Assembly: GCA_046758505.1 (NCBI GenBank)
Contig: JBHIAH010000005.1
Coordinates: forward strand, 6,273 to 70,272
Length of the DNA stretch: 64,000 nt
Source: Candidatus Methylomirabilales bacterium
GTDB lineage: Bacteria > Methylomirabilota > Methylomirabilia > Methylomirabilales > CSP1-5
Reading direction: 5' to 3'
In this document: positions 1 to 32,011 of the stretch, in pieces
How the letters are laid out: each line of letters begins with the position of its first letter
How positions within the stretch are numbered: position 1 is the first letter of the stretch
Made by a program: the position numbers and the translations under genes
Notes under the pieces: model-generated
What the model saw: only the letters and a program-made list of their open reading frames with translations
What the model was told of the DNA's origin: nothing
Database searches by the model: none

Positions 1-1
1 C

Positions 2-304
2 CAGCAAATGGGGCCTATGGGAGGCCAAGGCATGATGGGCCCTGGCATGGGCATAATGGGCGGCGGCACCGGTATGATGGGCCCCATGATGGGTTCCCCA
101 GAGATCATGGGGACCATGATGTCCATTCACGGCGAGACCATGAGCCTCATGGGCGAAATGATGCAGAAGTACGGAGGGGCCATGGGACAGATGACGCCCG
201 AGCTGCGGCAACAGATGCAGCAGGAGATGATGAAGCGCATGGGCGAGATTCTGACCAAACACGGGACGGCGCTGAAGGATCGGGCCAAGGCTGCCGGGAA
301 ATAG
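2..304 (+). CDS. Met/Gly-rich protein, C-terminal part (5' truncated by window); possible metal-binding protein
   Basis: Frame is open from the window start; 23 Met in the 98 aa from position 8; repeated GMMG/GPMM motifs; TAG at 302-304. Confidence 0.7.
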   Translation, partial: QQMGPMGGQGMMGPGMGIMGGGTGMMGPMMGSPEIMGTMMSIHGETMSLMGEMMQKYGGAMGQMTPELRQQMQQEMMKRMGEILTKHGTALKDRAKAAGK

Positions 305-540
305 GCTTTGCCGGGAGGGCGCTCGATGGGACCCCTCCCCTGCACTATAGAAGCCAAAACCTAAGACCGATGGCTCATGGGTCAAACGAGATCAACAAGG
401 AGAAATTTGAGGACCGGAAACGACTGGTTTCCGAGTAAAGTAGATCAAGATCATGGATATCTTGCTGACGCCGCGACGGCGGGCGAATGCTGCCCGAGAA
501 GCGCTGCGCATCCGCGAAATCACCCCCGGACCCACGAGTA

Positions 541-1332
541 ATGAGCAATCGTACAGACAACAGTTCAGGCGCAAGCGGGGAGGCCCTGAGCGCTCCCGTC
601 GACAACGTAGCGTCGAGCCTGTCCCTGACGTCGCGGTCCGGGAAGCGCGCCGCACGGGTGAGAATTGTCGTCGGGTTCGTGATTGTGATCGTGCTGGCGG
701 CCACGTATGCGCTCCTGTCGAAGACCGGTGCGCTTGCCACCATTTTGGATGGGGCGGCGTTGCAGGAGCGCATCGTCCGGCTCGGCCTGTTTGGCCCGCT
801 GGCGGTGATCGGGCTGATGGCGGTCGCCATCGTGCTGAACCCGATTCCGAGCGCCCCGATCGCCTTAGCCGGCGGCGCCGCTTTCGGCCATACCTGGGGA
901 ACCATGTACGTTCTGACTGGCGCCGAGATCGGCGCCCTCATTGCCTTTGCCATCGGGCGGCTGCTGGGCTACGAGGTGCTGCACAGATGGTTCGGGGACC
1001 GCCTGTCCCTCGGGCTGCTCGGCTCTCAGAACGCGTTGATGGCAATCGTTTTCGTGACGCGACTGGTCCCCTTCATCTCCTTCGACCTGGTCAGCTACGC
1101 GGCCGGTTTGACGCCATTGGCTACCTGGCGTTTCGCCGTGGCGACCTTGGCTGGGATCGCTCCCGCGAGCTTTCTACTGGCGCACTTTGGCAGTGAAATG
1201 GTGTCGGCCGACACGCGGCGAATTACGATCTCCGTGCTGGCGCTTGGTGGCCTCACTCTGATTCCGGTCGCGGTCAAGCTGATCTTGGACCGGCGCCGGA
1301 GACGGGCTGCGAAGCGGAGCGACGCTTCATGA
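541..1332 (+). CDS. TVP38/TMEM64 (VTT/DedA superfamily) membrane protein
   Basis: PIPSAPIALAGGAAFG, RLVPFISFDLVSYAAGLT and TLAGIAP motifs; multiple TM helices; start uncertain. Confidence 0.85.
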   Translation: MSNRTDNSSGASGEALSAPVDNVASSLSLTSRSGKRAARVRIVVGFVIVIVLAATYALLSKTGALATILDGAALQERIVRLGLFGPLAVIGLMAVAIVLNPIPSAPIALAGGAAFGHTWGTMYVLTGAEIGALIAFAIGRLLGYEVLHRWFGDRLSLGLLGSQNALMAIVFVTRLVPFISFDLVSYAAGLTPLATWRFAVATLAGIAPASFLLAHFGSEMVSADTRRITISVLALGGLTLIPVAVKLILDRRRRRAAKRSDAS

Positions 1333-1877
1333 TCAGTGCCGAGCCGACCCCACATGAGAGGACCGGGCGGCATTCCCCTAGAGGCCCCGTATGCTTCCAA
1401 TGAGGAGTGCATCTACTACACCGGGGTCAGCGAGCGAATGGGTCTCCTCCCCTTTCAAGGAGGTCCTATGTGCCCGCGATGCACGGGGGTAGGGCGTCAG
1501 CTCCCATGGGGTCGATGGCTCGCGGGGTACCGGCTGTGTGGGGGATAAAGCTTCCTGCCGATATCCGCTCTGTGCTGCCCACTAACTTCTCGAGCCCGAA
1601 CGAGCGAGAAACCGAGCGGGATTCTCACAGGGATGCCGGCGGTCATATACATAATAGAGGAATGGCAGATTGACCCGGACGGTCACCAGCCCGTGAGAGG
1701 ATAGGCTATGGAACCCTCTCATCACGACATGACATACGAGCACGACAGCCAGAGGCAGCGATCCACGGTACTTACAAGGGAGCCGCGAGTGCGCACGAAG
1801 GTAGCCACCAGGCCCCCCGCCCGCACTCGGATCGCGTGACCCGGCCAGCGCACATGGTGTCAGAGGAGGAGGCAGCA

Positions 1878-2333
1878 ATGAAAGGAATGTGGAAAGCGAC
1901 TGTCAGCCTTGTCGCCGCTATCTGTCTTGGGGTCACTGCTCTGCTGACAGCGGGGCAGCAGTCCGAGGGAGCTGAGAATGGAGTTCAATTACTCATCCCG
2001 ATTATGCGCCCCGAGAGGGGAAGGCAGCTCTTCGCCAGCAAGGGTTGTGTGGTGTGTCACTCGATAAATGGCGTTGGAGGACGCGGCGCAGCAGCACTAG
2101 ACGCGTCGACCATGAAGGGGCTTATGAACCCCTTCGACTTCGCAGCAAAGATGTGGAGGGGAGCGCCTGTCATGATCGCGATGCAGATAGGAGAGCTAGG
2201 CCATCAAATCGAATTTACCGGACAGGAGTTAGCGGACATCATTGCGTTCGTTCATGATTCCGATGAACAACGTAAGTTCTCGACGAAGGATATTCCGCCG
2301 AACATTCGCAAGCTCATGCGGCGCAAAGACTAG
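1878..2333 (+). CDS. Exported monoheme cytochrome c
   Basis: GGAGG RBS; signal peptide; CVVCH heme motif; downstream MWRGAPVM. Confidence 0.85.
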   Translation: MKGMWKATVSLVAAICLGVTALLTAGQQSEGAENGVQLLIPIMRPERGRQLFASKGCVVCHSINGVGGRGAAALDASTMKGLMNPFDFAAKMWRGAPVMIAMQIGELGHQIEFTGQELADIIAFVHDSDEQRKFSTKDIPPNIRKLMRRKD

Positions 2334-2760: not shown

Positions 2761-2922
2761 ATGGGTGAATTCCTCCAGGCTAACTGGTTCTGGATTTTGC
2801 TTATCGGGCTGTTCATCTGGATGCATTCTTCAGGCATGGGTTGTGGTGGACATGGTGGGGGACATAAACACGCGGACGAGGATGAGAAGAAGCAAAAAGA
2901 AGGCGGTCATCATCAACACTGA
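2761..2922 (+). CDS. Small His-rich membrane protein (DUF2933-like), 53 aa; not in the ORF track
   Basis: Manual translation MGEFLQANWFWILLIGLFIWMHSSGMGCGGHGGGHKHADEDEKKQKEGGHHQH*; GGGGA RBS. Confidence 0.75.
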   Translation: MGEFLQANWFWILLIGLFIWMHSSGMGCGGHGGGHKHADEDEKKQKEGGHHQH

Positions 2923-2988: not shown

Positions 2989-3252
2989 ATGAACCGACTC
3001 AATATTAGAGTGGTGACATGGTCTTTGGGCGCCTTTAGCCTCTTCTCGTATCTCGTCTGCATAGCGTATGGGCTGATTGTTCCCGAAAGCCTTCATATGA
3101 CGCAGTTCTTGGAGATCACGCTTCCGGGGTTCAAATGGCTTACCTTTGGGGGGTTCGTCATTGGCGTGATTGAGAGCTTTCTGTACGGGGTCTATGCGGG
3201 TCTGGTTTTCACGCCCATTTACAACTTCTTCTATGAAAAGTGGGGAGTGTAG
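2989..3252 (+). CDS. DUF5676-like small membrane protein
   Basis: YLVC...LPGFKWLT...GVIESFLYG...PIYN pattern; paralog at 17834. Confidence 0.75.
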   Translation: MNRLNIRVVTWSLGAFSLFSYLVCIAYGLIVPESLHMTQFLEITLPGFKWLTFGGFVIGVIESFLYGVYAGLVFTPIYNFFYEKWGV

Positions 3253-3418: not shown

Positions 3419-5239
3419 ATGGAGTACGATGTGATCGTGGTGGGCGCAGGGCCGGGGGGAGCCACGGCGGCATGCGAGCTTGCCCGCCGGGGCGTCAAGG
3501 TCGGGCTCTTCGAGCAGAAGCTGCTGCCCCGGTACAAACCGTGTGGCGGTTGCCTTTCTCTGAAGATCGACCAGATCCTGGAGCCGGACTTCCATCCGCT
3601 GGTGGAGAAGACGGTCTACGGCGCGACATTTACCTTTGAGGGCCTGGATGAGTTCCGCGTGAAGTCGAAACGACCTGTCGCCTACATGGTGATGCGAGAC
3701 CGGTTCGACCATTTCCTGGCACAGCGGGCCGGGCGGGCCGGCGCCGAGGGCCGCCCGGGCGAGCGGGTCCTCGATGTTGCCGACACGCCCGAGGGGGTCC
3801 GGGTGAAGACAGGGAAGGGTGAGTACGAAGCGCGATACCTCGTGGGGGCGGATGGTGCAAACGGAATCGTGGCCAGATCTCTGGGACTAACACCCCAGCG
3901 GCGGGTGGCGGTCTGCGTGGAGGCCGAGGTGACGACCGCCCCCAGGACCCTCGAGGCTCCGACGGACGAGGTTCGAATCGAGTTCGGCTCCATCCCATTC
4001 GGGTACGGTTGGGTATTCCCCAAGGGGGATCACCTGTCCATCGGCGTCGGTGGCCTGCGGGACAAGATCGGGAACCCCAGGGAGTTCTACGACGCGTTTC
4101 TGGTCGATACGGACCTGGTGGATGCGATTACCGATGAGAAGCGCAAGGGATATATCATCCCTGTTTTTGCGGGCGGCCGGGAGCCCATCGCTCGCGGGCG
4201 TACTCTGCTCGTGGGCGACGCGGCGGCCCTGGTGGACCCGTTCCTGGGCGAGGGCATCTACTACGCGATTCGTAGCGGCCAACTCGCCGCTGAGGTCATT
4301 GGTGGTGCGCTCTCGACCGGGGCTCCATCGGCCCTGTCCAGTTATGGGGAGCTGATCGAAGAGGAGATCTACCGTGAGTTCCGGCCCGCCCGCAACCTAG
4401 CCTTCTTCCTGTATGCGTTTGACCGAATGGGCTACGAGATGCTCAAACGCCGGGGAGCCTTCGTCGAATTGTACTTCGAGGTCCTGCGCGGCGAGGCAAG
4501 TTACGCGGACCTTTGGCGGGAGTTACGCGGTTTTGCCGCCGGCGAACTGCTCCGGTCGCTCTGGCCGTCATCGCGAAAGCCGCGAGACGTGGCCGAGCAC
4601 TACGACCGGCTGGCCCGGCGGTACGATTCGGCTCTCTCCATCTGGAAAACAGTGGTTGTAGCGCCGGCGTGGGAAGCGGTACGTATGCTACTCACCGACC
4701 ATGTTCTACCGGCCGCCAGCGTTCTGGATGCGGGGACGGGCACCGGAGAGGCGGTGCGTTTGCTTCTCGAATGCGCTAACCCAGGTCGGGTCGTGGCCGC
4801 AGATGTGTCCAAGGGGATGCTTCGGGCCGCGCGGAAAAAGGTCACCGATCCCCGCGTGACGTGGGAGCAACAAGACATCACCAGACTGCCCTACCCTGAC
4901 CGGTCGTTCGACATAGCCCTGAGCACCTGGACGCTGGAAACTCTTGTCGATCCCCGCCCAGCCGTCCGGGAGTTTCTCCGCGTGATCAAGGACGACGGAT
5001 TCGTCATATATGCGTTTTCCAGCAGGCCCGAGGCCGGCTTGAAGCACTTATACGGTCGACTGCTGGAGGAGTGGTCGGCGGGCACGCTGCGGGGTCGGTT
5101 CCTGACGCCGTCCGAACAGCCGTACCACAGTTGCGAACATTCCCGCCTGACGACCTTTGCCCGGGGACTCGCCACCGTGGTGGTGCTGCGGAAGTGCTGC
5201 CGGGTGGACGACCGACAGGCCCCATGCCTCCCCACGTGA
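3419..5239 (+). CDS. Geranylgeranyl-reductase-family FAD oxidoreductase fused to a class I SAM methyltransferase (UbiE/MenG-like)
   Basis: VVGAGPGG, KPCGG, GYGWVFPK, LVGDAA..DPFLGEGIY; C-terminal VLDAGTGTG and LPYPDRSFD; GGAGG RBS. Confidence 0.85.
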   Translation: MEYDVIVVGAGPGGATAACELARRGVKVGLFEQKLLPRYKPCGGCLSLKIDQILEPDFHPLVEKTVYGATFTFEGLDEFRVKSKRPVAYMVMRDRFDHFLAQRAGRAGAEGRPGERVLDVADTPEGVRVKTGKGEYEARYLVGADGANGIVARSLGLTPQRRVAVCVEAEVTTAPRTLEAPTDEVRIEFGSIPFGYGWVFPKGDHLSIGVGGLRDKIGNPREFYDAFLVDTDLVDAITDEKRKGYIIPVFAGGREPIARGRTLLVGDAAALVDPFLGEGIYYAIRSGQLAAEVIGGALSTGAPSALSSYGELIEEEIYREFRPARNLAFFLYAFDRMGYEMLKRRGAFVELYFEVLRGEASYADLWRELRGFAAGELLRSLWPSSRKPRDVAEHYDRLARRYDSALSIWKTVVVAPAWEAVRMLLTDHVLPAASVLDAGTGTGEAVRLLLECANPGRVVAADVSKGMLRAARKKVTDPRVTWEQQDITRLPYPDRSFDIALSTWTLETLVDPRPAVREFLRVIKDDGFVIYAFSSRPEAGLKHLYGRLLEEWSAGTLRGRFLTPSEQPYHSCEHSRLTTFARGLATVVVLRKCCRVDDRQAPCLPT

Positions 5240-5254
5240 TTCAATATACTCGAG

Positions 5255-6634
5255 ATGCGCACACAGGTATGTGACGAGATGTGTGGCAAAGAGGCTCGGA
5301 CTCGTGGACGACGGGGTGACGGCCAAGGCAATCCGCTGCGGCTGATGACCTTTCTGGTATTCACGTCCCTCGCTTATGGCGGGACGAATCTCCCTGGAAG
5401 CACGACGGCGGTGTCCGCCGCAACTCCCCCCGTCGCGAGCGCGGTGGAGGTAGGAGGACGCCCTGATTCGTTCGCGGGCATGGTGAATGCCGTAAAACCC
5501 ACCGTCGTCAATATCAGTACCACCCAGGCCGTGCAGAGTCGCGCTGCCGACTCGTTCCGTGAATTCTTTGAACGGTACTTTGAAGGAGGCCCCCCACCGC
5601 ATGAGCTACGGCATAGTCTCGGCTCGGGACTCATCGTCGAGTCGGACGGCTATGTGCTTACGAACAACCATGTGATTGAAAACGCGCGGATGATCATGGT
5701 CCGGCTCTCCGACCACGGGGAATACGAGGCCAAGGTCGTGGGACGGGATCCCTGGACTGATCTGGCGCTCCTTAAGATCCAGGGCCGCCGAAAGTTCGCG
5801 ACGGTTCGTCTCGGTGATTCCGACAGCCTCCGGGTCGGCGATTGGGTCGTCGCCATCGGGAACCCCTTCGGCCTGGAGCACACGGTCACAGCGGGGATTG
5901 TGAGCGCGAAGGGGCGGGTCATCGGGGCGGGCCCGTACGACAACTTCATCCAGACGGACGCGGCGATCAATCCAGGCAACTCCGGTGGCCCCCTCTTCAA
6001 CAGTCGCGGGGAGGTCGTCGGGCTCAATACGGCCATCTTCAGCCAGCGTGGGGGATCTGTCGGCATCGGCTTCGCGATCCCGATCAATCTCGTGAATGAA
6101 CTGATCCCCCAGCTCAAGGTGAAAGGGCGTGTCTCCCGCGGATGGCTCGGCATCACGATTGCGCCCGTGACCCCGGACCTAGCTAAGAAGCTCAACCGCC
6201 CCTCGGGAGACGGCGCCCTGGTGGAAGAGGTGGTCCCGAACGGGCCGGCAGCCCGGTCCGGCGTTCAGATGGGGGATGTGATCGTTGCGTTCCAAGGGAA
6301 GCGGATCCTGCGGCCCCGTGAGCTCCCTCGCTTGACCTCCAAGACACCTGTTGGATCTTACGTGGAGCTTACGCTCCTCCGTCGCGGGAAGGAACGGGCC
6401 GTGAAGGTGAGACTCGCAGAGCTTCCAGAGTTCCGCCGCGATGATCGCTCGGAAGCTAGACGCAAGGACGGCAGCGCAAGGAGTGGGTTTTTCCAGAACT
6501 ACGGATTCTTCATCCTGATCCTACTGCTGTTTTTCGGATTTCATCTGTTCCGCTTCGGAGGTCATCGTGGTCATGACCGCGGCGATGACAATGACAGAGA
6601 CAGGGAGTCCGTTAGTCACGGGCACCGGCACTGA
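5255..6634 (+). CDS. HtrA/DegP-family serine protease (single PDZ) with a C-terminal TM and His-rich tail
   Basis: TNNHVI, DLAL, IQTDAAINPGNSGGPL triad motifs; RGWLGI PDZ start; start codon uncertain. Confidence 0.9.
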   Translation: MRTQVCDEMCGKEARTRGRRGDGQGNPLRLMTFLVFTSLAYGGTNLPGSTTAVSAATPPVASAVEVGGRPDSFAGMVNAVKPTVVNISTTQAVQSRAADSFREFFERYFEGGPPPHELRHSLGSGLIVESDGYVLTNNHVIENARMIMVRLSDHGEYEAKVVGRDPWTDLALLKIQGRRKFATVRLGDSDSLRVGDWVVAIGNPFGLEHTVTAGIVSAKGRVIGAGPYDNFIQTDAAINPGNSGGPLFNSRGEVVGLNTAIFSQRGGSVGIGFAIPINLVNELIPQLKVKGRVSRGWLGITIAPVTPDLAKKLNRPSGDGALVEEVVPNGPAARSGVQMGDVIVAFQGKRILRPRELPRLTSKTPVGSYVELTLLRRGKERAVKVRLAELPEFRRDDRSEARRKDGSARSGFFQNYGFFILILLLFFGFHLFRFGGHRGHDRGDDNDRDRESVSHGHRH

Positions 6635-6770
6635 TGTCCCAGTCCGGATGAACCCGACTGGATGCAACCGTAATCCATCAAACATACATTAGCAGCAGCT
6701 GCTATTTCTTCCGGGGAGCCGAGTTTCAGTAGCTCTGTAAGGCCCCCGGAAGTCCTCCGGGAGGAACGTG

Positions 6771-8153
6771 ATGACGACGCGCTTATCCTATTTCAAGCCT
6801 TACGACATCCGGGGAACTGTTCCGGATCAGATTAATCCCGAGGTGGCGTACAGGATTGCTCGGGCTGTGGCCGAATGGACTAGGGTAGAAGAAATCATCC
6901 TGGGCCGCGATGCGCGGCTTTCCTCCCCTCCCCTGGCGGCGTCCGTGATTGAGGGATTGCTAGATAGCGAGATCACTGTCTTGGACCTAGGGATGGTGAC
7001 CACGCCCATGCTCAACTATGCCGTGGCCCGCTTCGAACGATATGGCCTGATGATTACCGCCTCACACAATCCGAAAGAGTACAACGGAATCAAGGTTATC
7101 GATCCCAACGTGGAACAGGTGTACTATGGGCGGCGACTGGAGGCCCTGGAAAAATTAGTTTTAAGCGATCGCTTTGACAGGGGAAAGCGCAGAGGACGAG
7201 TCCTCATGAGGTCGATCCTCCATGATTATGAAGACTTCCTGGTTGGGAGATTCCAGGGCGCAGGACTTGCGTCTCTTTCCATCGTGGTGGATTGTTCCAA
7301 CGGAGTGGGAGGGCTACCGCTCCGAGTGTTAGAGCGACTGGGGCTTAAGCACACCGTGCTATATCACGTGCCAGACGGGAATTTTCCAAACCACGGATGC
7401 GATACGCTTCGGCCCGAGAATCAGCAAGATCTACAGCGGGATGTGAGGGAGCAGAAGGCCGATCTGGGGATCATGTTTGATGGGGATGCTGACCGGGTGG
7501 TCTTCGTGGATGAACATGGAGAAATGGCCCCGCTGGATATGGTCTTTGTGCTGTTGGCCCGTCAGGAACTTGAGCGAAGCACAGGCCGACTGTTCTACGA
7601 CCTGCGCTTCAGCCGGGCGGTGAAGGAAGAGATTGAAAAGCTGGGCGGAATCCCTGTCATGATGCGTGTTGGCAACCCCTTCCACAAGGAGGCCCTTCAT
7701 CGATACGAAGACGGGCTTGTGGCCGCTGAGCTGTCCGGACACATCATGTACAGGGAACACTTCGGGATCGATGATCCGCTTTACGCGTCGCTTAAGCTGC
7801 TTTCCCATCTTGCACGCTCCGGCGAGAGCTTCTCTCAACAACTCCTACCACTCAAACGATATGCCGGTAGCGGGGAAATTCGTATCAAGACAGACAACCC
7901 CAAGGGCTTGGTGGAAAAAGTAACATCACACTTTGGGGATGGGATTCTGACTGAAATCGATGGGGTGACAGTTGAATATTCTGAGTGGTGGTTCAACCTG
8001 AGGCCTTCCAACACGGAACCGGTGGCCAAGTTGGTTATGGAGGCGAATTCACCACAGGTCCTTGAACGCTCTAAGACAGACTTGCTCTCCTTCCTCGTGA
8101 GCGAGGGAGGAGCAGTCGAGCCAGGGGATTTCACGGCCACATCCGATCGGTGA
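6771..8153 (+). CDS. Phosphomannomutase/phosphoglucomutase
   Basis: YDIRG, TASHNP (catalytic Ser), FDGDADR, ELSGH, RPSNTEP. Confidence 0.92.
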   Translation: MTTRLSYFKPYDIRGTVPDQINPEVAYRIARAVAEWTRVEEIILGRDARLSSPPLAASVIEGLLDSEITVLDLGMVTTPMLNYAVARFERYGLMITASHNPKEYNGIKVIDPNVEQVYYGRRLEALEKLVLSDRFDRGKRRGRVLMRSILHDYEDFLVGRFQGAGLASLSIVVDCSNGVGGLPLRVLERLGLKHTVLYHVPDGNFPNHGCDTLRPENQQDLQRDVREQKADLGIMFDGDADRVVFVDEHGEMAPLDMVFVLLARQELERSTGRLFYDLRFSRAVKEEIEKLGGIPVMMRVGNPFHKEALHRYEDGLVAAELSGHIMYREHFGIDDPLYASLKLLSHLARSGESFSQQLLPLKRYAGSGEIRIKTDNPKGLVEKVTSHFGDGILTEIDGVTVEYSEWWFNLRPSNTEPVAKLVMEANSPQVLERSKTDLLSFLVSEGGAVEPGDFTATSDR

Positions 8154-8273
8154 CCGGAAACGAGGAAACCAAAAGAGAGAGCTGAACCTGTTGCAGACTC
8201 ATTGGTCCAATCTACTGCTAATCTGAGGGGTTAACTGACGCAATGCTGCTGCAGTCCGATGGAGGAGGTAGCC

Positions 8274-11123: not shown

Positions 11124-11357
11124 ACCGGTGAGGCGGCATCGTGTGGTGAGAAAGCGACAGCGCGCACGGGCGCGGAACGCCGACGGGGCGGTGAGCCGGT
11201 GAAGGCATCACAGCGCGACGTGCCAAGACGACGGAAAAAGGAGACCGGGGGGTCCCGCCTGAGGTGCCGGGGACGAACAGCGCTTGCACGGCACCCTGGG
11301 AAGCAGAACCGACTCGGACATGCACTCCACAACCAGGACCTACAAGAAGGAATGAGC

Positions 11358-19958: not shown

Positions 19959-20129
19959 GCGAAGACCTTGTGTGGAAAGACCGAATAGGGCAGACTGCGG
20001 ACAGGAGAGCTTTAGCGAGAACCCTTCGTACGCTCGGCACAATCGAGATTCCGAGATGCGAGAAGTGAAGAAAGGGTGGATAGAGGGGCTGTGATAGCGA
20101 GGCAGGCACCGGCTGACGCTCAGGCCAGT

Positions 20130-23642: not shown

Positions 23643-24017
23643 ATGACCATCGCACACATTGGGGTACTGCTAGCCGCCACGGCCCTGTCTATCCTGGTCA
23701 TCTGGTTTTTCTTCTATTCCGAGAAGAAAGGGACCCGGCTGGCAGCGAGCAACGGGGTGCAGGAGGCTGAGATTGTCGTGAAGGGGGGTTACACCCCCGA
23801 CGTGCTCGTCGTGAAAGCGGGGCAGCCGGTGCGCCTGAACTTCAACCGGCAAGAGACGGCCTCGTGCTCGGAGATGGTGCTCTTCCCGGACTTTAACACA
23901 AGCGCCAAGCTGCCTCCTGGTGAAAGGGTGTCGATCGAGCTGACACCGAAGCAGCCCGGCGAGTACGAGTTTCAGTGCCAGATGGGGATGCTCCGGGGCA
24001 AGCTCATCGTCGAGTAA
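23643..24017 (+). CDS. Membrane-anchored cupredoxin-domain protein (CupA-like)
   Basis: N-terminal TM; VKGGYTP, CSEM, FQCQMGMLRG; directly after copA. Confidence 0.85.
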   Translation: MTIAHIGVLLAATALSILVIWFFFYSEKKGTRLAASNGVQEAEIVVKGGYTPDVLVVKAGQPVRLNFNRQETASCSEMVLFPDFNTSAKLPPGERVSIELTPKQPGEYEFQCQMGMLRGKLIVE

Positions 24018-24181: not shown

Positions 24182-24745
24182 ATGGGGCAATGGGAAGACT
24201 CTGGGTCGTCTGGAGAGAGGACTGATTCTCAGGGCATTACCCCCGGTCGGAGGCGCTTCATCGCCCTCGCGTTCGGCGCGATCACGTCGGCCATCGCCGG
24301 CATCATCGGCGTGCCCCTCGCCAGCTTCTTCGCCCTCCCGGCGTTGAAACGGTCGGAGCGTCGATGGCTGGAGGTGGGACCGGTCTCGGACCTTGTAGAG
24401 GGGCAGATCACAAAGGTGGTCACGAAGCCGTTGGCCTCCCAGGTTTGGCCCCATAACATCCCCTCAGTAGCCATCTACGTCGTGAACCATGGCGGTGGGA
24501 AGTGTACCCTTTACCACATCCACTGCACCCATGTGGGCTGCCCCGTTCGGTGGAACTCCCAGGCAGGGCGCTTTTTTAGCCCCTGCCACGGCGGCGTCTT
24601 CGACCGGGAGGGCCGCGTCCTGGCTGGCCCACCGCCCCGGCCCTTGGACCGCTACGAGCACAAGATCGAGAATGGGATCCTCTATGCAGGGCGGCTATAC
24701 AAGGTGAACGAGAAGCTGGAGTTCGCGGAATGGCATCACGCATGA
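24182..24745 (+). CDS. Rieske iron-sulfur subunit of a Rieske/cytochrome b complex (Tat-anchored)
   Basis: GRRRF Tat motif plus TM; CTHVGC; SPCHGG; GPPPRPL. Confidence 0.88.
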   Translation: MGQWEDSGSSGERTDSQGITPGRRRFIALAFGAITSAIAGIIGVPLASFFALPALKRSERRWLEVGPVSDLVEGQITKVVTKPLASQVWPHNIPSVAIYVVNHGGGKCTLYHIHCTHVGCPVRWNSQAGRFFSPCHGGVFDREGRVLAGPPPRPLDRYEHKIENGILYAGRLYKVNEKLEFAEWHHA

Positions 24746-26124
24746 GACGGCTTTTGGATTGGCTCCAGGAGCGCCTAGGCACCCGAGAACAGGCGACCAA
24801 GTTTCTGTATCGTCGTCTCCCGGTCGGGACGACGTGGTGGCACACGCTGGGGAGCGCAGCCCTCTTTTTGATCTTCCTCCAGACCATCACCGGTTTCTTC
24901 CTGGCGTTCTACTATGTCCCCTCCCCCGAGCACGCGTACGACAGCCTGATCTACATCCAGAACGAAATCCCGTTCGGGGCATTCGTGCGGGGGCTCCACT
25001 ATTGGGGGGCGAGTCTCACCGTAGTGCTTGTCTTCCTGCATCTGCTCCGGGTCTTCTTCATGGGGGCCTACAAGTACCCCAGGGAGCTTTCCTGGGTTGT
25101 CGGGGTCTTCCTGTTCCTGCTCATCATGGGCTTCGGCTTCACCGGCTACCTCTTGCCCTGGGACCAGAAGGCCTACTGGGCGACGGTGGTCGGGACCCAT
25201 ATCGCCGAGACAGCCCCGTTAGTTGGCAAGTACCTCTGGAGGATCCTCCAGGGAGGGGTGGAGGTGGGGGCCAGGACCCTGGGACGCTTCTACGCCGCCC
25301 ACGTCCTGATCCTTCCCGCCCTCCTCTACGCTTTCATCCTGGCCCATATCTCCATGGTGATCTATCAAGGGATCGCCCTGACGCCGAAGGGAGCGCTCAG
25401 CCGCATCAGGAAGGCGGACTATAAGAGGCTCTACGAAGAGTCCAAAGGGAAGGGCAAGACCTTCTTCGAGCATCTGCTCCGTGATGGGGTCATACTTTTT
25501 CTCCTCTTTTTGCTCCTCGTCTGGATGGCCGCCGCCTGGAAGATCCCGATGGAGGAGGTAGCGGACCCCACGAGCACCACGTACGTCCCGCGGCCCGAGT
25601 GGTACTTCTATTTCCTGTTCGAGCTGTTGTGGCTCTTCCCGGGAAAGTGGATCCCAGTCGCGACCTTCTATATCCCCCTTGCGGCGGTCCTCCTCCTCCT
25701 CTTCCTTCCGTTTTACGATCGGACGTCGGGGAGGAGTCCCTTCATGCGACCCGTCGCCTCCGGGATCGCCACGGCGGCCCTCGCGGCCATCGCCCTCTTG
25801 ACATACCAAGGGGCCACGGCCCCCGCTCCACCCAAGGCAGGGGAGGCCATCTCGGCAGAGACGAAGGCCCTGCCGCCCAAGCTCGCGATAGGCAGGAGGG
25901 TCTTCGAGGTCCAGGGGTGCGCAGCCTGCCACGTATTGAAGGGGACCGGGAGCGCGGCCGGGCCTGATCTTACGAGGGTTGGGGCCAGACGGGATGTGAC
26001 ATGGTTGAAACGATTTATCAAGGACCCAGGTGCGGTCAGGCCCGGCTCGGCCATGCCTCCCTATGGCGAGCTTCCCGCAGACGAACTGGACGCCTTGACA
26101 AAGTATCTCGCCTCATTGAAGTAG
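24742..26124 (+). CDS. Cytochrome b fused to a C-terminal monoheme cytochrome c
   Basis: ATGA overlap with the Rieske gene; heme His pairs, GYLLPWDQKAYW, RPEWY, CAACH, SAMP. Confidence 0.92.
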   Translation: MRRLLDWLQERLGTREQATKFLYRRLPVGTTWWHTLGSAALFLIFLQTITGFFLAFYYVPSPEHAYDSLIYIQNEIPFGAFVRGLHYWGASLTVVLVFLHLLRVFFMGAYKYPRELSWVVGVFLFLLIMGFGFTGYLLPWDQKAYWATVVGTHIAETAPLVGKYLWRILQGGVEVGARTLGRFYAAHVLILPALLYAFILAHISMVIYQGIALTPKGALSRIRKADYKRLYEESKGKGKTFFEHLLRDGVILFLLFLLLVWMAAAWKIPMEEVADPTSTTYVPRPEWYFYFLFELLWLFPGKWIPVATFYIPLAAVLLLLFLPFYDRTSGRSPFMRPVASGIATAALAAIALLTYQGATAPAPPKAGEAISAETKALPPKLAIGRRVFEVQGCAACHVLKGTGSAAGPDLTRVGARRDVTWLKRFIKDPGAVRPGSAMPPYGELPADELDALTKYLASLK

Positions 26125-26136: not shown

Positions 26137-26793
26137 ATGGCAGCGACCAGGTGGGGAACAATAGCGCTGGGGCTTTTCCTGGCTTTCTGGAGTGTATTCG
26201 CTCTCCTCGCGAAGGCATCCGAGAAGCAGTACGCCCTTTGGGGCAATGCCCGGAAGGGCCGCCAGGTCTTCGTGGAGAAGGGTTGCGGGAGTTGCCATGC
26301 AATTCGGGGAGTGGGGCCGAACCTGGGGCCCGACCTGGGGAGAATCTCCGCCAAGCCCCTCACTATGACCCAGATGGCCGGTACCATGTGGAATCACGCC
26401 CCGGTCATGAGGCGATTGGCCGAGGAGAAAGGGATTAGCTGGAAGCCGTTCCGGGGATCGGAGATGCGGGACTTGATTACCTTCCTGTACGCAATTAGGC
26501 TCATGGATGAGCCCGGGGATCCCAGACGAGGGGAGCGGCTCTTCGTCGAGAAGGGGTGTGCCACTTGCCATAGCCTCAAGGGGAAAGGCGGGACGATCGG
26601 GCCGGATCTCAAAAATTGGAACCAGTACGGGTCTCCAATCCTCTGGGCGGAGCTGATGTGGGCCCACGCCATTAAGATGGAGGAGAAAGTGCGGGAATTC
26701 GGTATACGTTGGCCTACCTTTGAACGGAACGAGATGATCGATCTCATCGCTTACATCCGGAAGGAGGTTACCTCCGCCAGTCCCCCGAAGTGA
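26137..26793 (+). CDS. Diheme cytochrome c
   Basis: Signal/TM; CGSCH and CATCH; MWNHAP/MWAHA repeats. Confidence 0.88.
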   Translation: MAATRWGTIALGLFLAFWSVFALLAKASEKQYALWGNARKGRQVFVEKGCGSCHAIRGVGPNLGPDLGRISAKPLTMTQMAGTMWNHAPVMRRLAEEKGISWKPFRGSEMRDLITFLYAIRLMDEPGDPRRGERLFVEKGCATCHSLKGKGGTIGPDLKNWNQYGSPILWAELMWAHAIKMEEKVREFGIRWPTFERNEMIDLIAYIRKEVTSASPPK

Positions 26794-26823: not shown

Positions 26824-27819
26824 GTGGAGGGTAAAATTGAAGAAGAGGATTCCTTGACGGGAGCCTGGCCCATAAAAGGACGACTCGTTATTGGCATCTT
26901 TGGCCTGCTGATCCTCGGCGCCTTCGGCGTATGGATCTCCCTCAACTCGTCCAGCGACCCCGGCCCAGGCATCCTCGAGGCGAGCGGCCGGATCGAGGGG
27001 GATCAAGCCGCAGTGGGGGCGAAGATCGGCGGGCGAATCGTCCATTTGCCTATTCACGAGGGACAGGCCCTCGCAGCCGGCCAGCTCATCGCTGAGCTTT
27101 CTTCCGAGCAAGCAAGGGCGCAGCTTGAGAGGGCAGAGCATGACCTCCACATGGCCCGAGAGCAGCTCGAAACTGCTCGAGCCCGCCTGCTCCAGGCAGA
27201 GGCGGACCGGGAGCGGGCCGAGCAGGACTATCTCCGCTACCAGGAACTCCTCGCCGACGGAGCGATCGCTGCCCAGGTAGTAGATCAAGCCAAGGCGGCA
27301 TTCCGGGCGGCCAGGGCGGCCCAGGAGGCAGCCAGAAGACACATCGAAGCGGCGAAAGCTCGGATCCAATCAGCCGAGGCAGGCCAGGCCCTTGCCCAAG
27401 CCAACGTGAAGGACACTCGGGTCATGGCCCCCTTCTCCGGGACGGTCCTCCGGAAGCTCGTTGAGGGGGGTGAGGTAGTGGCCGCCGGCACCCCCCTCGT
27501 CACCTTTGTGGACCTGTCGAAGCTCCACGTGAAGGTGTACCTTCCCGAGCGAGACATCGGCAAGGTGAAGCTCGGAAGCCCCGCTCAGGTCTATGTGGAC
27601 GCCTTTCCAAAGCGGTTCTTCGATGCCACGGTCTCCGAGGTCTCACAGCAGGCCGAGTTTACCCCGCGGGACATTCACATGAAGGATGAGCGGGTAAAGC
27701 TGGTCTTCGCCGTGAAATTGGCCCTGAAGAATCCCGAGGGCTTCCTCAAGCCCGGGATGCCGGCGGACGCCCGGATCCGATGGAAGGCCGAGGCCTCTCG
27801 GGGAGACGACCTGGAGTAG
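26824..27819 (+). CDS. HlyD-family periplasmic adaptor (YbhG-like)
   Basis: ASGRIEG, coiled coil, AEFTPR, LKPGMPAD. Confidence 0.88.
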   Translation: MEGKIEEEDSLTGAWPIKGRLVIGIFGLLILGAFGVWISLNSSSDPGPGILEASGRIEGDQAAVGAKIGGRIVHLPIHEGQALAAGQLIAELSSEQARAQLERAEHDLHMAREQLETARARLLQAEADRERAEQDYLRYQELLADGAIAAQVVDQAKAAFRAARAAQEAARRHIEAAKARIQSAEAGQALAQANVKDTRVMAPFSGTVLRKLVEGGEVVAAGTPLVTFVDLSKLHVKVYLPERDIGKVKLGSPAQVYVDAFPKRFFDATVSEVSQQAEFTPRDIHMKDERVKLVFAVKLALKNPEGFLKPGMPADARIRWKAEASRGDDLE

Positions 27820-27825
27820 GGGGCG

Positions 27826-29757
27826 ATGGAGGTCGTCGGGGCGCAGAGCCTCACAAAGCACTTCAAGGCGACGCCCGCCGTGGTCGATGTCAACCTCGCC
27901 GTGGAGCAGGGAGAGATCTTCGGCGTCATCGGCCCAAATGGCGCCGGCAAGACAACCCTGATCCAGCTTCTCACCGGACTCTTGGATCCCACGGCCGGCC
28001 GCACAACGGTCTTCGGGTTCGATACAGCCCGTGAGGTTGAAGCAATCAGGCAACGGATCGGCTACGTCTCACAAGACTTCACCCTCTACGGCAGCCTCAC
28101 CGTTGAGGAAAACCTGGATTTCTTCGCCGACCTCTACGGCGTGCCGGCCGAGGCTCGAGAGCAACGCAAGGAGGAGTTGCTGGCCTGGAGTCGCCTGGCC
28201 CCCTTCCGCACGCGGCGGGCCGAGCGACTCTCCGGGGGGATGCAGAAGAAGCTTCACCTCTGCAGTACCCTGATCCACGAGCCCGAGATCCTCCTTCTGG
28301 ACGAGCCCACCACCGGCGTGGACCCCCTCTCCCGCCGAGAGCTGTGGGAAATCCTCTACGAGTTGGTCGGGCGTGGTCTCACACTCGTCGTGGCGACGCC
28401 GTACATGGACGAGGCGGAACGGTGCCACCGGGTGGCCCTCATGCACCGGGGGCGGATCATCCGGTGCGACACGCCCGACACACTCAGGAAAGAGATCGAC
28501 GAGGAAGCGTGGGAGCTGCGGGCAGGGGCCTTAACGGGCGGGCAAGAGCTCCTCGAGAAGGCCGAGTTCCCCATCCGGACACATCGCATCGGAGACCATC
28601 TCCATATTCTGACCCCCAAGGGGCGTGACCTGGCCGGCGAGCTCCGGCGTTTATCGGAGGGGGGCGAGGTCGATGACCTGGGCCTGCGGCGGGTCTCTCT
28701 GACGATGGAGGACGTCTTCGTGTCCGTCGTCAGCAAGGCCGCGACCGCGGAGAGCTCCCCCAGGAGTCCCGGCGAGGTACCGCGCAGCCACTCCGTGGAG
28801 AGCACCGATGGGGTCGTCGTGCACTTGAATGGGCTCACCAAGGCATTCGGGGCCTTCACCGCCGTCGATCATGTCTCCCTGTCGGTGAACCGCGGCGAGG
28901 TGTTCGGGTTCCTTGGGCCCAACGGGTCGGGCAAGACGACGACCATCCGGATGCTTTGTGGCTTGCTCGCCCCATCCGCGGGGCGCGGCGAGGTGCTAAG
29001 CCACGATGTCCTCCGCCAAGGCCACCACATCAAGCCCCGGATCGGGTACGTGTCCCAGCACTTTTCGCTATACAACGATCTGTCAGTGGAAGAAAATCTC
29101 GCCTTTTTTGGAGGAGGCTATGGGCTTCCACCCCGCCGCCTCGCCGAGCGGACGGCGTGGGTCCTGGAGATGGCTGGTCTCAGGGGGAAAGAGCGGCGAC
29201 TGGCCGGGGAGCTGTCGGGAGGCATCAAGCAGCGCCTGGCTCTGGGGTGTGCCATCCTCCACGATCCGGAAATCCTCTTCTTGGATGAACCGACGGCGGG
29301 GGTGGACCCCCTTTCGCGACGCGAATTCTGGGACCTGATTCGGAGCCTGGCCGCGGCGGGGGTCACGGTGTTCGTAACCACTCACTACATGGACGAGGCT
29401 GAGAACTGTCACCGCCTGGCGTTCATTTACCACGGGCGCCTGATCGCCGTGGGGAGTCCCCAGGCCCTCAAGGATCGCATGCGGGCTGGCGTGATCCTGG
29501 AGCTGGAGTGCCGCGACCCCTTCGCGGCGCTCCGCCTCCTCCGCACACAGCCTACCCTGAGCCGGGCGAGCTTCTTCGGCCGCCGAATCCACATCCTAGC
29601 GGAAGACGCCGGTCTGGCCGAGCCCTTAATCCGGGAGACCCTAATGGCGGGGGGGCTCGCAGTCGATCACCTGGAGATGATCCCCTTCTCCCTAGAGGAT
29701 CTCTTCGTCATCTTCATCGAGATGGAAGAGCAGGGCGGGAAGGAAGCCGATGCATAG
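27826..29757 (+). CDS. ABC transporter ATP-binding protein with duplicated NBD (YbhF-like)
   Basis: GPNGAGKT and GPNGSGKT; LSGG; LDEPT twice. Confidence 0.92.
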   Translation: MEVVGAQSLTKHFKATPAVVDVNLAVEQGEIFGVIGPNGAGKTTLIQLLTGLLDPTAGRTTVFGFDTAREVEAIRQRIGYVSQDFTLYGSLTVEENLDFFADLYGVPAEAREQRKEELLAWSRLAPFRTRRAERLSGGMQKKLHLCSTLIHEPEILLLDEPTTGVDPLSRRELWEILYELVGRGLTLVVATPYMDEAERCHRVALMHRGRIIRCDTPDTLRKEIDEEAWELRAGALTGGQELLEKAEFPIRTHRIGDHLHILTPKGRDLAGELRRLSEGGEVDDLGLRRVSLTMEDVFVSVVSKAATAESSPRSPGEVPRSHSVESTDGVVVHLNGLTKAFGAFTAVDHVSLSVNRGEVFGFLGPNGSGKTTTIRMLCGLLAPSAGRGEVLSHDVLRQGHHIKPRIGYVSQHFSLYNDLSVEENLAFFGGGYGLPPRRLAERTAWVLEMAGLRGKERRLAGELSGGIKQRLALGCAILHDPEILFLDEPTAGVDPLSRREFWDLIRSLAAAGVTVFVTTHYMDEAENCHRLAFIYHGRLIAVGSPQALKDRMRAGVILELECRDPFAALRLLRTQPTLSRASFFGRRIHILAEDAGLAEPLIRETLMAGGLAVDHLEMIPFSLEDLFVIFIEMEEQGGKEADA

Positions 29758-30883
29758 CCGGATCGTGGCCGTCGCAAAGAAAGAGACCTGGGAGATCATG
29801 CGGGACCCGATCACACTCGGTATTGCTATTGTTCTCCCTCTCGTCATGATGTTCCTCTTTGCCTATGCCATTACCCTGGACGTTAAAGAGATTCCTCTGG
29901 CGGTCTTGGACTTGGATCGAAGCGCTGAGAGTCGGGAATACGTAGCTGGCTTCCTCGAGTCGGGCTACTTCAGGCTCCGGGCCGCGGCCCAGAATCTTGA
30001 GGAGATCGATCGCCTCCTCGATCGGGGGACGGCCCGGATGGCTCTCATCATTCCTCCAGATTTTTCCAAGCGCCTTGGGCAGGGGCTTCCATCGGAAGTC
30101 CAGACGCTGGTGGACGGCTCCTTCTCCAACACGGCCATCGTGGCCTTGAACTACGTTGCGGCCATCGACGAGACCTACAACGCGCGCATTCAATCTCACT
30201 ATTTCGCCCAACGCTTCAGGGCTCTTGAGAAAGGGCCCGCCGTAAAGGCCGAGCCCCGCGTCCGGTACAATCCCGATCTTCAAAGCGCCAACTACATCAT
30301 TCCGGGCCTCTTTGCCGTTATCCTCATGGCCTTCCCGCCGATGCTCACGGCGTTAGCGGTGGTCCGGGAGAAAGAGCGAGGCTCCATCCAGCAGATCTTC
30401 ACCTCCCCGGTGAAATCGTGGGAGTTCATCGGGGGGAAGATGCTCCCGTACGCCGGGATCGCCTTTCTGGAGATGGTGCTCCTTTTGGGTGTGGGGCTCC
30501 TCTGGTTCCGGGTCCCCGTCCGGGGAAGCCTTTGGCTGCTGCTCCTTCTTTCCATCCTCTATGTAATGTGCACAGTAGGGATCGGCCTTCTGGTCTCGAC
30601 CATCACAAGGAGCCAGGTGGTGGCCGTCCTGTTGGCCATCGTCCTGACGCTGATGCCCGCCTTCCTCTTCTCCGGGTTCCTCTGGCCCATTGCCAGCATG
30701 CCGGCCTTTTTCCAGTCTTTAACTTACCTCTTCCCCGCCCGCTACTTCAACGAGATCGCGCGGGGTATCGCCCTCAAGGGGATCGGGCTTACGTACCTGT
30801 GGTTCAATGCTATCCTCCTCCTCCTCTATGCTTTGGCCGTGCTGGCTTTTGCATCCCTAGGATTCAAGAAGAAGATCGGGTGA
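29750..30883 (+). CDS. ABC-2 permease (YbhS-like)
   Basis: LFAYAITLDV, YNPDL, REKERGSI, SGF..PI..MP. Confidence 0.9.
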   Translation: MHSRIVAVAKKETWEIMRDPITLGIAIVLPLVMMFLFAYAITLDVKEIPLAVLDLDRSAESREYVAGFLESGYFRLRAAAQNLEEIDRLLDRGTARMALIIPPDFSKRLGQGLPSEVQTLVDGSFSNTAIVALNYVAAIDETYNARIQSHYFAQRFRALEKGPAVKAEPRVRYNPDLQSANYIIPGLFAVILMAFPPMLTALAVVREKERGSIQQIFTSPVKSWEFIGGKMLPYAGIAFLEMVLLLGVGLLWFRVPVRGSLWLLLLLSILYVMCTVGIGLLVSTITRSQVVAVLLAIVLTLMPAFLFSGFLWPIASMPAFFQSLTYLFPARYFNEIARGIALKGIGLTYLWFNAILLLLYALAVLAFASLGFKKKIG

Positions 30884-30886
30884 GGC

Positions 30887-32011
30887 ATGACAAGGCTTTT
30901 AGCCCTCATCAAAAAAGAGTTCATCCAGTTCTTCCGTTACCGGCCCCTCGTTATCCTCGTCGTCTGGACCATCGCGATAGAGATCGCCCTCTGTGCCTAT
31001 GCCATCACCTACGATGTGACGCACCTCTCGCTGGCGGTGCACGACCTGGACGGCTCTTTCGAAAGCCGGGAGCTGATCAGCCGGTTCGCGCAGACGGAAT
31101 ATTTTGATGTGAAATACCAAGTCCGGAGGAGGGAGGAGATTGAGGGCCTCTTGGAGGTGGGGCGGGCCGATCTTGGCGTGATCATCGGTCCCGATTTCTC
31201 GCGCCGGCTGGGACAAGGGCTTCAGGCACCCGTCCAGCTCCTCCTGGACGGCTCCAATTCCAACACGGCCCTGATCGCCTTGGGCTACGCCCAGAGGATC
31301 GTTCATGGCTACTCCCGCCAGATCGAATACGCCCGGGTCCACAGCGCGATTGGACATCCCGGGCCCCTGCCCGGCATTCGAAACCAGCGGCGGGCCTGGT
31401 ACAATCCGGACCTCAAAAGTGTCCACTTCATCGTCATCTCGATGCTGGTCCTGGGGGTGATGATGATCGCTACCATCCACCCGGCCGCCGCCGTGGCCTG
31501 GGAAAAGGAAGCAGGGACCATCGAGCAGCTTCTGGTCATGCCCTTTCGACGCTGGGAGCTGATGGTGGCAAAAGTCACCCCAACGTTTGTGGTGAGCCTG
31601 GCGACCTTGGCCCTCGCCCTATGGCTCCCCTGGTGGTTCAGAGTACCTATCCGGGGGAGCCTCCCCCTCTTCTTCGCGCTCTCCGCTCTCTTCCTCTTCA
31701 GCAGCATGGGCTGGGGGCTCTTCTTGGGAACGGTCGCCGAGAACCTCCAGCAGGCGCTTCTTCTCGCCTTCTTTTCCATCTTTCCCATCATGGTCATCTC
31801 AGGCACCATGGTACCGGTGGAGAGCATGCCAAAATCCATACAGCTCCTCTCCTACCTCAGCCCACTCACCTACTATACGGAGATCGGTCTCGCAATCTTT
31901 CTCAAAGGGGTCGGGATCGAGGTGCTCTGGCCTCAGGCCCTATCTATGGGAATTCTCGGTCTTGGCATCTTTGCCATGGGTCTCTGGCGATTCGGGCGGC
32001 ACCTCGGGTGA
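30887..32011 (+). CDS. ABC-2 permease (YbhR-like)
   Basis: KKEFIQ, LDGSNSN, WYNPDL, EKEAGTIEQL. Confidence 0.9.
   Translation: MTRLLALIKKEFIQFFRYRPLVILVVWTIAIEIALCAYAITYDVTHLSLAVHDLDGSFESRELISRFAQTEYFDVKYQVRRREEIEGLLEVGRADLGVIIGPDFSRRLGQGLQAPVQLLLDGSNSNTALIALGYAQRIVHGYSRQIEYARVHSAIGHPGPLPGIRNQRRAWYNPDLKSVHFIVISMLVLGVMMIATIHPAAAVAWEKEAGTIEQLLVMPFRRWELMVAKVTPTFVVSLATLALALWLPWWFRVPIRGSLPLFFALSALFLFSSMGWGLFLGTVAENLQQALLLAFFSIFPIMVISGTMVPVESMPKSIQLLSYLSPLTYYTEIGLAIFLKGVGIEVLWPQALSMGILGLGIFAMGLWRFGRHLG

Follow-up and report, generated by a model that had tools for sequence, protein, structure and literature searches.

Why should copper-export genes share one co-oriented run with enzymes from families that act on prenyl or quinone substrates? 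The question is raised by a 64,000-nucleotide stretch of DNA, hereafter the window, from a Candidatus Methylomirabilales bacterium (contig JBHIAH010000005.1, positions 6,273 to 70,272; G000:C5:6273-70272, where G, C and L numbers denote genomes, contigs and loci), whose genome assembly measures 2.99 Mb and is 96.8% complete. The phylum Methylomirabilota includes the methane-oxidising Methylomirabilis. An earlier note on the window had proposed that five of its enzymes, namely a GGR-methyltransferase fusion, a fusion with a domain resembling vitamin K epoxide reductase (VKOR), a lycopene-cyclase-like protein, a CrtC/AttH-like protein and an ICMT-like methyltransferase, form one copper-responsive programme of quinone or prenyl-lipid remodelling beside a CorE-like sigma factor. 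Comparison with relatives reveals that the cluster is an accreted patchwork island and not one lipid pathway. Its best explanation, to which we assign a probability of about 60%, is a metal island that combines copper export with separately recruited modules protecting envelope thiols and cytochromes. A single quinone/prenyl remodelling programme is unlikely, and a GGR-family enzyme tied to copper is well supported.

Block structure and copper linkage

Every long gene between window positions 1 and 33450 lies on the + strand, in agreement with the ~32 kb of co-oriented genes described in the earlier note. In two genomes of the same genus (G006 and G009) the genes for the extracytoplasmic function (ECF) sigma factor, DUF5676, ICMT, CopA and cupredoxin are contiguous and free of inserted blocks, with a nucleotide identity to the window of ~80% from ECF to ICMT and ~70% in CopA, and in G006 the CopA-cupredoxin run passes straight into the HlyD-ABC genes. 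Since this order is unbroken, positions 487-16923, the AttH gene with its neighbour, and the Rieske module are missing from the islands of these relatives. A block of GGR-methyltransferase, FtsH, (EamA), HtrA, ICMT and CopA genes is also present in three Rokubacteria-lineage genomes (G183, G176 and G185), and the GGR-methyltransferase/FtsH/EamA/HtrA block of the window is interrupted by the phosphomannomutase, VKOR, cyclase and GalT genes. The five 'lipid' genes are distributed over at least three separately inserted blocks. In addition, the window contains remnants and duplicates, and its GC content at third codon positions spans 0.59-0.89. Among same-genus genomes, the VKOR fusion was found in 0 of 13, the GGR fusion in 0 of 11 and the ECF gene in 2 of 11. 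The genes of the co-oriented run are listed below.

1..304, +, Met-rich exported protein, 3' part; its start lies 178 nt before the window and a paralogue 5.6 kb upstream
487..1332, +, VTT/DedA-type membrane protein, with which the block lacking in G006 and G009 begins
1354..1590, +, remnant, frameshifted, of the upstream cytochrome c gene
1836..2333, +, monohaem cytochrome c
2761..2922, +, small membrane protein with a His tail; resembles DUF2933 by eye, without a Pfam hit
2989..3252, +, DUF5676 membrane protein, copy 1
3419..5239, +, GGR-family flavoprotein fused to an S-adenosylmethionine-dependent methyltransferase with a C-terminal His/Cys cluster; not MenG
5255..6634, +, HtrA/DegP protease fused to a His-tailed small protein (own gene in G183 and G176)
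6768..8153, +, phosphomannomutase/phosphoglucomutase family
8259..11123, +, extended short-chain dehydrogenase/reductase (SDR), Met/His-rich linker, SPW, two-cysteine VKOR-like domain, SPW
11352..11495, +, frameshifted YHS remnant
11649..12350, +, lycopene-cyclase-like membrane protein, PF18916 half match
12538..13575, +, GalT-family uridylyltransferase
13778..13924, +, stand-alone YHS protein
14138..15994, +, FtsH protease, island copy; 83% identity to the G183 island copy
16015..16923, +, EamA transporter, with which the inserted block ends
17051..17608, +, CorE-like ECF sigma factor
17834..18091, +, DUF5676 membrane protein, copy 2
18167..18832, +, membrane methyltransferase of the ICMT/PEMT family, of the type whose copA link is published
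18933..19958, +, AttH-type double lipocalin with signal peptide; insertion
20076..20624, +, uncharacterised membrane protein inserted together with AttH
20739..23624, +, CopA, P1B-1 Cu(I)-exporting ATPase
23643..24017, +, membrane-anchored cupredoxin
24182..24745, +, Rieske protein, second cluster box SPCH for CPCH (Ser133, codon at 24578)
24730..26124, +, cytochrome b (PEWY motif), fused at its C-terminus to a cytochrome c
26137..26793, +, dihaem cytochrome c
26824..32011, +, HlyD adaptor, tandem ABC ATPase, pair of ABC-2 permeases; the G006 counterpart is 89% identical in nucleotides
32222..33450, +, TPR protein and uncharacterised gene; right end of the co-oriented run, also in G006

Much of this content had been recognised in the earlier note. 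Its copper hardware (CopA, cupredoxin, YHS and the Cys-rich ECF) was borne out by motifs and by Pfam and NCBIfam, CopA having two YHS and two HMA domains, an N-terminal CxxC and the CPC, YN..P, MxxSS and DKTGT motifs of a P1B-1 Cu(I) ATPase, and the Rieske/cytochrome b/cytochrome c module, HtrA, FtsH and the HlyD-ABC exporter are all present. The His-rich frame at 1-438 is a shadow of the Met-rich gene that ends at 304. The five prenyl or quinone families were likewise verified with Pfam and NCBIfam, but tests that define the families go against three of their labels. The phosphomannomutase, GalT, EamA, VTT and two DUF5676 genes had been omitted, together with three remnants (cytochrome c, YHS and DUF2933-like).

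Linkage to copper genes was counted by tblastn (E<=1e-5) with the island proteins, the pump core serving as the CopA probe; the sets include related loci, which do not count as independent, and the numbers found are reduced by short contigs. The GGR-methyltransferase fusion has CopA in 3/3 loci. Among at least 540 genome loci with a VKOR-like gene, the best 80 have CopA in 18 (15/52 of the loci of at least 12 kb), any copper marker in 36 and an SDR in 62, and the other families in few: cyclase-like 2, ICMT 3, GGR 1 (29% identity), ECF 1 and AttH 0. For the cyclase-like gene, at least 505 metagenome loci matched, and the best 80 have CopA in 23 (15/34 of the longer ones), any copper marker in 42, ICMT in 11, GGR in 2, VKOR and ECF in one each, and AttH in none. 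The linkage to copA predicted in the earlier note is thus enriched for GGR, VKOR-like, cyclase-like and ICMT genes individually, and for this reason these four families are not random passengers, even though the accreted mosaic that the note regarded as contrary to its proposal is indeed what the close relatives reveal. Its expected linkage to CorE failed to appear, with an ECF gene near 1/80 VKOR-like, 1/80 cyclase-like and 1/28 GGR genes, and so did the joint unit: at least three of the five families occur together in only 2 of the 160 VKOR-like and cyclase-like loci (L032 and L155).

The link between ICMT and copA has been published and is kept across genera (PMC8478169, in part), and ICMT matched 264 plasmid records. 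Four of the seven plasmid matches of the cyclase-like protein comprise two copies beside copA, one next to DUF2933-ICMT and one near an RND system. A plasmid of a soil Burkholderia thailandensis (L098, NZ_CP068711.1) carries ftsH, ICMT, copA, DUF5676, YHS, cyclase-like, SPW and NfeD genes in another order. The merR-copA-cupredoxin-DUF2933-ICMT island of Alteromonas and other Gammaproteobacteria shares CopA, cupredoxin, the ICMT-like protein and small His-tailed proteins with the window; however, the regulator here is of the CorE type, and the GGR-methyltransferase, SDR-VKOR, cyclase-like and Rieske modules were not seen there in the part of the source available (PMC8478169).

The GGR-family enzyme and the csoR-ggr-copA operon

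The GGR domain of the fusion has an FAD fold, scores 239.7 bits with TIGR02032 (cut-off 158.8) and keeps the CGG, YxWxFP and GDAA motifs, which it shares with characterised members of the family such as the Thermoplasma DGGGPL reductase (3OZ2), ChlP/BchP and MenJ. Its closest relative in both sequence and fold is 3OZ2 (E 2e-41; Foldseek 1.7e-26), and it scores below the cut-offs of the characterised equivalogs (ChlP/BchP 170/343, MenJ 85/700, DGGGPL reductase 79/780 bits). Unlike these enzymes, it is fused to a Cys-tailed class I methyltransferase, in which the C-terminal H570, C572, C593 and C594 are invariant in 30 sequences, and its subfamily lies in copper or ccdA contexts. An assignment of the methyltransferase as MenG/UbiE was rejected (TIGR01934 71 bits against a cut-off of 158); the true MenG, with 243.7 bits, is encoded on contig C46. 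The majority of the best 120 matches are full-length fusions, and fusions among them come from Gammaproteobacteria, Gemmatimonadales, Nitrospinota, KSB1 and Methanoperedens. For the archaeal fusion, 0 of 301 sampled Halobacteriota genomes matched; plasmids yielded two distant GGRs only, and a viral scan one weak 28-residue match.

Unfused ggr genes of the Methylomirabilales provide the clearest copper link. In the 28 loci covered (of 36 matches, eight being left out), csoR (Pfam PF02583) lies directly upstream in 22 and CopA is present in 22, the order csoR-ggr-copA is found in three families of the order, and the ggr-copA gap is 24 nt in L187. In 21/22 cases each, a TAC-N9-GTA element is at most 70 nt, and TTGAC at most 100 nt, from the start of csoR; a leave-one-out matrix scores 15-30 for 21/22 sites, and the best of 40 control loci reaches 17.3, with most below 10. 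TAC-N9-GTA matches the published CsoR operator (PMC3902906, in part), and the relatives share with the CsoR-controlled copA operons of Streptomyces lividans and Bacillus subtilis its placement downstream of TTGAC, but they insert a GGR-family gene between repressor and pump. By comparison, CopA was found in 0/41 control GGR loci, comprising 0/21 from Rokubacteria (of ~57 matches in that lineage) and 0/20 from Nitrospirota (19 of 21 matches and one more; 724 kb), the latter with any copper marker in 0/20. Four further GGR loci, from Chloroflexota and one unplaced, have copper markers in 2/4, and one Chloroflexota locus unites GGR, TlpA, CcdA-like, HMA and CopA genes.

In Nitrospirota, ccdA adjoins ggr in 16/20 loci. 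At L238-L257 ggr closes a ccsB-ccsA-tlpA-ccdA operon, and in some genomes a ccm (system I) set follows, which suggests that the enzyme may have a general role in cytochrome c maturation. The same subfamily context is known from the ccsB-ccsA-ccsX-tfp7-ccdA-ggr locus of Leptospirillum, whose authors propose haem side-chain modification (PMC7084401, in part); these loci have no copA. The subfamily is tied to copA in one lineage and to ccdA and cytochrome c maturation in a second one, and some Rokubacteria members have neither tie. ResB was not found in the present genome, which leaves a Nitrospirota-style system II maturation unsupported here.

The genome under study also retains an unfused locus on contig C68, where ggr and htrA are kept, csoR is truncated (G000:C68:6390-6622, L295) and copA is gone; copA is likewise missing at the matching loci of G003 and G006. 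The truncated repressor and lost pump likely reflect a hand-over from CsoR control to the CorE-type island.

The sigma factor, the other modules and the extent of the island

The ECF protein consists of sigma2 and sigma4.2 domains only, with a CxC (VCRC) between sigma2 and sigma4, and its C-terminal cysteines, at offsets 0, +3, +8, +11 and +13, match C181/184/189/192/194 of CorE. The metal specificity position, which is Ala185 in the copper-sensing CorE and Cys174 in the cadmium/zinc-sensing CorE2 (PMC4937300, in part), is Thr, and the window protein thus has no Cys at the CorE2-174 position. Metal genes lie near the ECF gene, and homologous ECF loci contain CopA in 4/8 and any copper marker in 6/8 cases. 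The regulon of Myxococcus xanthus CorE (ECF44; copA, copB and cuoB; PMC3107203 and PMC4937300, in part) is thus similar in the CxC and Cys-rich C-terminus with equal Cys spacing, in a P1B ATPase close by and in the lack of an adjoining anti-sigma gene. However, the window has no multicopper oxidase, its ECF has no C206 equivalent, and the cargo differs. Moreover, CorE of M. xanthus does not control carotenoids, and the carotenogenesis precedent invoked in the earlier note does not apply to CorE, because the copper response of that pathway goes via CarQ/CarR (PMC6851896).

The VKOR-like domain exceeds the PF07884 cut-off within an SDR-SPW-VKOR-SPW architecture. Like bacterial VKOR, the DsbB alternative, it has the membrane CxxC (78/80 sequences) and the Ser57 equivalent (79/80, matched by spacing to PMC4555120); in contrast, the loop pair equivalent to Cys43 and Cys51, fully conserved in bacterial VKOR (PMC4555120, in part), is absent in 81/81, several Met residues are near-invariant, and SPW flanks, the SDR tie and a copper-island context are added. 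Because the loop cysteines are absent, the protein would not be expected to replace DsbB by the usual relay. A structural model of SPW-VKOR-SPW, in which the VKOR domain is of low confidence, retrieved no VKOR; its top matches are four-helix bundles, among them copper storage proteins at Z 10.6-11.4, a range that is common for helical bundles and is not used as evidence. The SDR-SPW linker (9350-9815) is rich in Met, His and Glu, and its second half corresponds to the N-terminus of the VKOR-like gene in homologues. A selenocysteine at the CxxC of the G029 homologue was considered and rejected, as the TGA belongs to a frameshift region.

The cyclase-like protein matches the Lycopene_cyc family (PF18916) over the C-terminal half only, with 56.4 bits, and H108, H111, C151 and H223 are invariant in 80/80 sequences. 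It lacks defining features of a CrtYcd-type lycopene cyclase: it has no NCBIfam match at 1e-5 (TIGR03462 is missed) and one PxEE instead of both repeats, while a cyclase from a carotenoid cluster scores 129.7 bits with TIGR03462 and aligns to the window protein with an hhalign probability of 8%. Squalene/phytoene synthase homologues were found in 0/80 cyclase-like loci. At three haloarchaeal loci (L267, L270 and L271) single-repeat PF18916-like proteins lie beside CBS-domain genes, once also beside a SCO-like gene, and no carotenoid gene was seen within 1.5 kb. The earlier note's remark that phytoene desaturase is missing extends to the whole genome, in which neither CrtI nor CrtB exceeds its cut-off; of two SQS_PSY genes, one is HpnD and the other encodes a protein below all cut-offs. 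Given its futalosine genes, MenG and HpnD and the absence of CrtI, the host makes menaquinone and probably hopanoids, but not carotenoids.

The ICMT-like protein matches ICMT and PEMT with 28.7 and 28.1 bits and has the RHPxY and C-terminal EE..FG..Y motifs in alignment to 4A2N; it scores 33.9 against 160 bits with the isoprenylcysteine methyltransferase equivalog and slightly higher with LmtA and MddA, all under cut-off. A CrtC hydratase label for the remaining protein was rejected, since it has no NCBIfam match and the only PDB match of this CrtC/Lipocalin_9 protein is 'Putative AttH'. AttH occurs in none of the locus sets. It has one close cluster (65%, without context) and no match at E<=1e-30 in 199 other genomes of the phylum, so that its copper link is unsupported rather than refuted.

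Rieske, cytochrome b (PEWY) and cytochrome c genes form one operon. The ligands of a Rieske cluster are two Cys and two His (CxHxGC ... CxCH), so that the SPCH of the second box replaces an iron ligand with Ser. This is not a read error, because 5/5 close homologues share it, CPCH being found in 8/8 distant ones. All five SPCH Rieskes accompany cytochrome b-c and dihaem c genes in an island context: a P1B pump is close to one of them, ICMT and YHS genes are close to two, and two adjoin the same HlyD-ABC exporter and SHOCT. The window Rieske presumably lacks the Ser that has been tied to high potential (PMC3509893, in part), which fits menaquinol.

The island extends beyond the window. The co-oriented run ends right at 33450, and position 1 is not its left boundary: upstream it continues for 6.3 kb to the contig end with SHOCT, Met-rich, cytochrome c, DUF302, DUF1573 and CcdA-like genes. 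The first 46 bases of C5 match the start of C10 head to head (45/46) within a dispersed repeat; such repeats of 160-200 bp (G000:C5:1-162 and 2773-2973) have copies on at least nine contigs, and one splits the assembly between C10 and C5. C10:1-46 kb is itself a co-oriented metal island terminating at dnaA, with two further GGR-like genes, lgt, three TlpA genes, ccdA, a DsbA-like gene, two P1B pumps, a CusCBA-like set and MerR genes, and in G006 a single contig joins the genes of the C10 end and the C5 start, likewise beginning after dnaA. The repeat match and this contig make the join likely, though unproven; the island very probably continues from C5 onto C10, and the window is probably the right-hand part of a metal island of ~85 kb beside dnaA, with a G006 counterpart of ~40 kb.

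Several further features were observed in this setting. The metal island starts right after dnaA in G000 (C10:47335-48660) and in G006 (L198), and dnaN was not seen adjoining dnaA at either place. Near-identical pairs of STAS-like and HMA genes lie at G000:C10:5900-6820 and 10400-11260. Two exported HMA-like genes (G000:C10:41181-41306 and 37430-37552, both on the minus strand) have a TGA just past a GM motif, after which the frame resumes, and likely encode selenocysteine metal-binding proteins. At the right edge of the island, a HicAB-like toxin-antitoxin pair was recognised by eye at window 33654-34078 (no NCBIfam match at 1e-15), beside a 147-bp stretch that is 95% identical to part of C23. 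Another P1B ATPase, at G000:C24:11600-25000 (L016), has genes for multihaem c, NrfD-like, Rieske and cytochrome b proteins nearby. Rfam and tRNA scans returned nothing, and scans for sigma-70 promoters and terminators returned hits at about chance level.

Competing explanations and the place of the enzyme in copper defence

What would such an island do? Three things are directly observed: which genes are present, how they fall into blocks by comparison with relatives, and that the modules with GGR, VKOR-like, cyclase-like, ICMT and Rieske genes recur next to copper genes. On this basis a mechanism can be proposed. The CorE-type sigma factor is the predicted copper sensor and would switch on the CopA pump, which, going by what is known of these families, would export Cu(I) with the help of YHS, cupredoxin and Met/His-rich proteins, while HtrA and FtsH would degrade copper-damaged envelope proteins. 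The cargo modules would probably shield envelope processes prone to copper damage, above all thiol redox and c-type cytochrome assembly, each on its own. The GGR flavoprotein, whose context in relatives (csoR-ggr-copA with a CsoR operator) predicts copper induction, would most likely reduce a C=C bond in a membrane isoprenoid such as the menaquinone side chain, a lipid carrier or the haem tail, and may thereby support the CcdA/TlpA/cytochrome c pathway, whose genes adjoin those of its Nitrospirota relatives; the assembly of cytochrome c is blocked by copper (PMC4600104 and 10.64898/2026.10.17.759849, in part). The SDR-VKOR-like protein probably passes electrons between its membrane CxxC and either NAD(P)H or the quinone pool instead of making disulfides, and the cyclase-like protein likely binds metal via its own His/Cys set, so that the five enzymes would be independent and not in series on one lipid. 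Several points weigh against this explanation. It offers no role for the phosphomannomutase, GalT and AttH, and the prenyl substrate is uncertain because the GGR model family also covers QhpG, FixC and halogenases. No CsoR operator was found in window 1-33500, which leaves copper induction of the window GGR copy unsupported, and no CorE promoter was identifiable in the conserved ECF-DUF5676 spacer. CopA is absent from 62/80 VKOR-like and 57/80 cyclase-like loci, many of them short contigs, and the CopA probe also detects other, non-copper P1B pumps. The Methylomirabilales GGR loci are kin and not independent events. A copper-only GGR clade, with SH-aLRT 90 in a first tree, dissolved once Nitrospirota were added, and the larger subfamily then enclosed non-copper Rokubacteria GGRs, in quick searches without bootstrap and, in the second tree, with 18 redundant and two long rows dropped.

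A more specific proposal, that a copper-induced GGR enzyme modifying lipid, quinone or haem (alone under CsoR in Methylomirabilales, or fused to a Cys-tailed methyltransferase on mobile islands) sustains cytochrome c maturation during copper stress and, jointly with the SDR-VKOR that has two cysteines and the Rieske/b/c module that has a Ser ligand, constitutes an undescribed membrane-redox layer of copper defence, is a tentative one, possible at somewhat less than even odds. It is doubtful that the VKOR-like, cyclase-like, ICMT-like and methyltransferase folds were instead reused for copper binding, copper reduction or thiol methylation, with Rieske/b/c as a quinol-driven copper or thiol reductase. 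The missing loop cysteines beside a kept CxxC and near-invariant Met, the invariant residues of the cyclase-like protein, the H/C/CC tail of the methyltransferase, the SPCH Rieskes in islands and the inclusion of methanethiol S-methyltransferase among ICMT-family models would all fit, but conserved His and Cys may be structural or catalytic, and the GGR, with its reductase motifs kept, is left unexplained; this idea partly overlaps with the favoured explanation. That the cargo merely hitch-hikes on mobile metal islands, with no function under copper stress, is improbable. The accretion, the remnants, the phosphomannomutase, GalT and lone AttH genes, and the unrelated metabolic genes on plasmid copies of such islands would be expected, and island hot spots give co-occurrence without shared function. 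On the other side, VKOR-like genes accompany copper genes in Chloroflexota, Nitrospirota, Proteobacteria and archaea, different genera have kept the ICMT-copA unit, and ggr is a vertical operon rather than a hot spot, because its csoR/copA flanks, short gaps and operator are kept in three families. Least probable of all is the earlier note's single CorE-controlled pathway, whose product Rieske/b/c would use for metal or thiol redox control. All five genes are co-oriented with CopA and the CorE-type factor, four are copper-linked elsewhere, the metagenome locus L155 has GGR, cyclase-like and ICMT genes within 5.7 kb, GGR-methyltransferase occurs with ICMT in 3/3 fusion loci, and the host makes menaquinone; but the rarity of joint loci, the absence of AttH from every set, the separate inserted blocks, the lack of carotenoid genes, the TIGR03462 miss and the control of carotenogenesis by CarQ all speak against it.

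Within the favoured explanation of an accreted island, copper islands with CopA, ICMT and cupredoxin, as well as CorE-type factors, are already known. In a mainly open literature, no paper was found on the GGR-copA operon, a VKOR-copper link, a cyclase-copper link or the SPCH Rieske; a figure legend on copper clusters names chlP (PMC5328820, in part), and a VKOR on a plasmid-like region is mentioned with no copper link in the part available (PMC6803676). Copper-island subfamilies are found under two annotation labels, 'vitamin K epoxide reductase family', with at least 540 loci, and 'lycopene cyclase domain', with at least 505. The labels mislead annotation because these subfamilies lack features that define the named enzymes.

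To conclude, copper defence has mostly been described as export, chelation and oxidation, yet copper is reported, in sources available in part, to block c-type cytochrome assembly in many bacteria. The csoR-ggr-copA operon, with its three genes, is a small and experimentally tractable example in which an enzyme would have been recruited to counter damage to cytochrome assembly, and the predicted prenyl-chain reductase that relatives encode between copper repressor and pump likely represents an unstudied form of copper defence.

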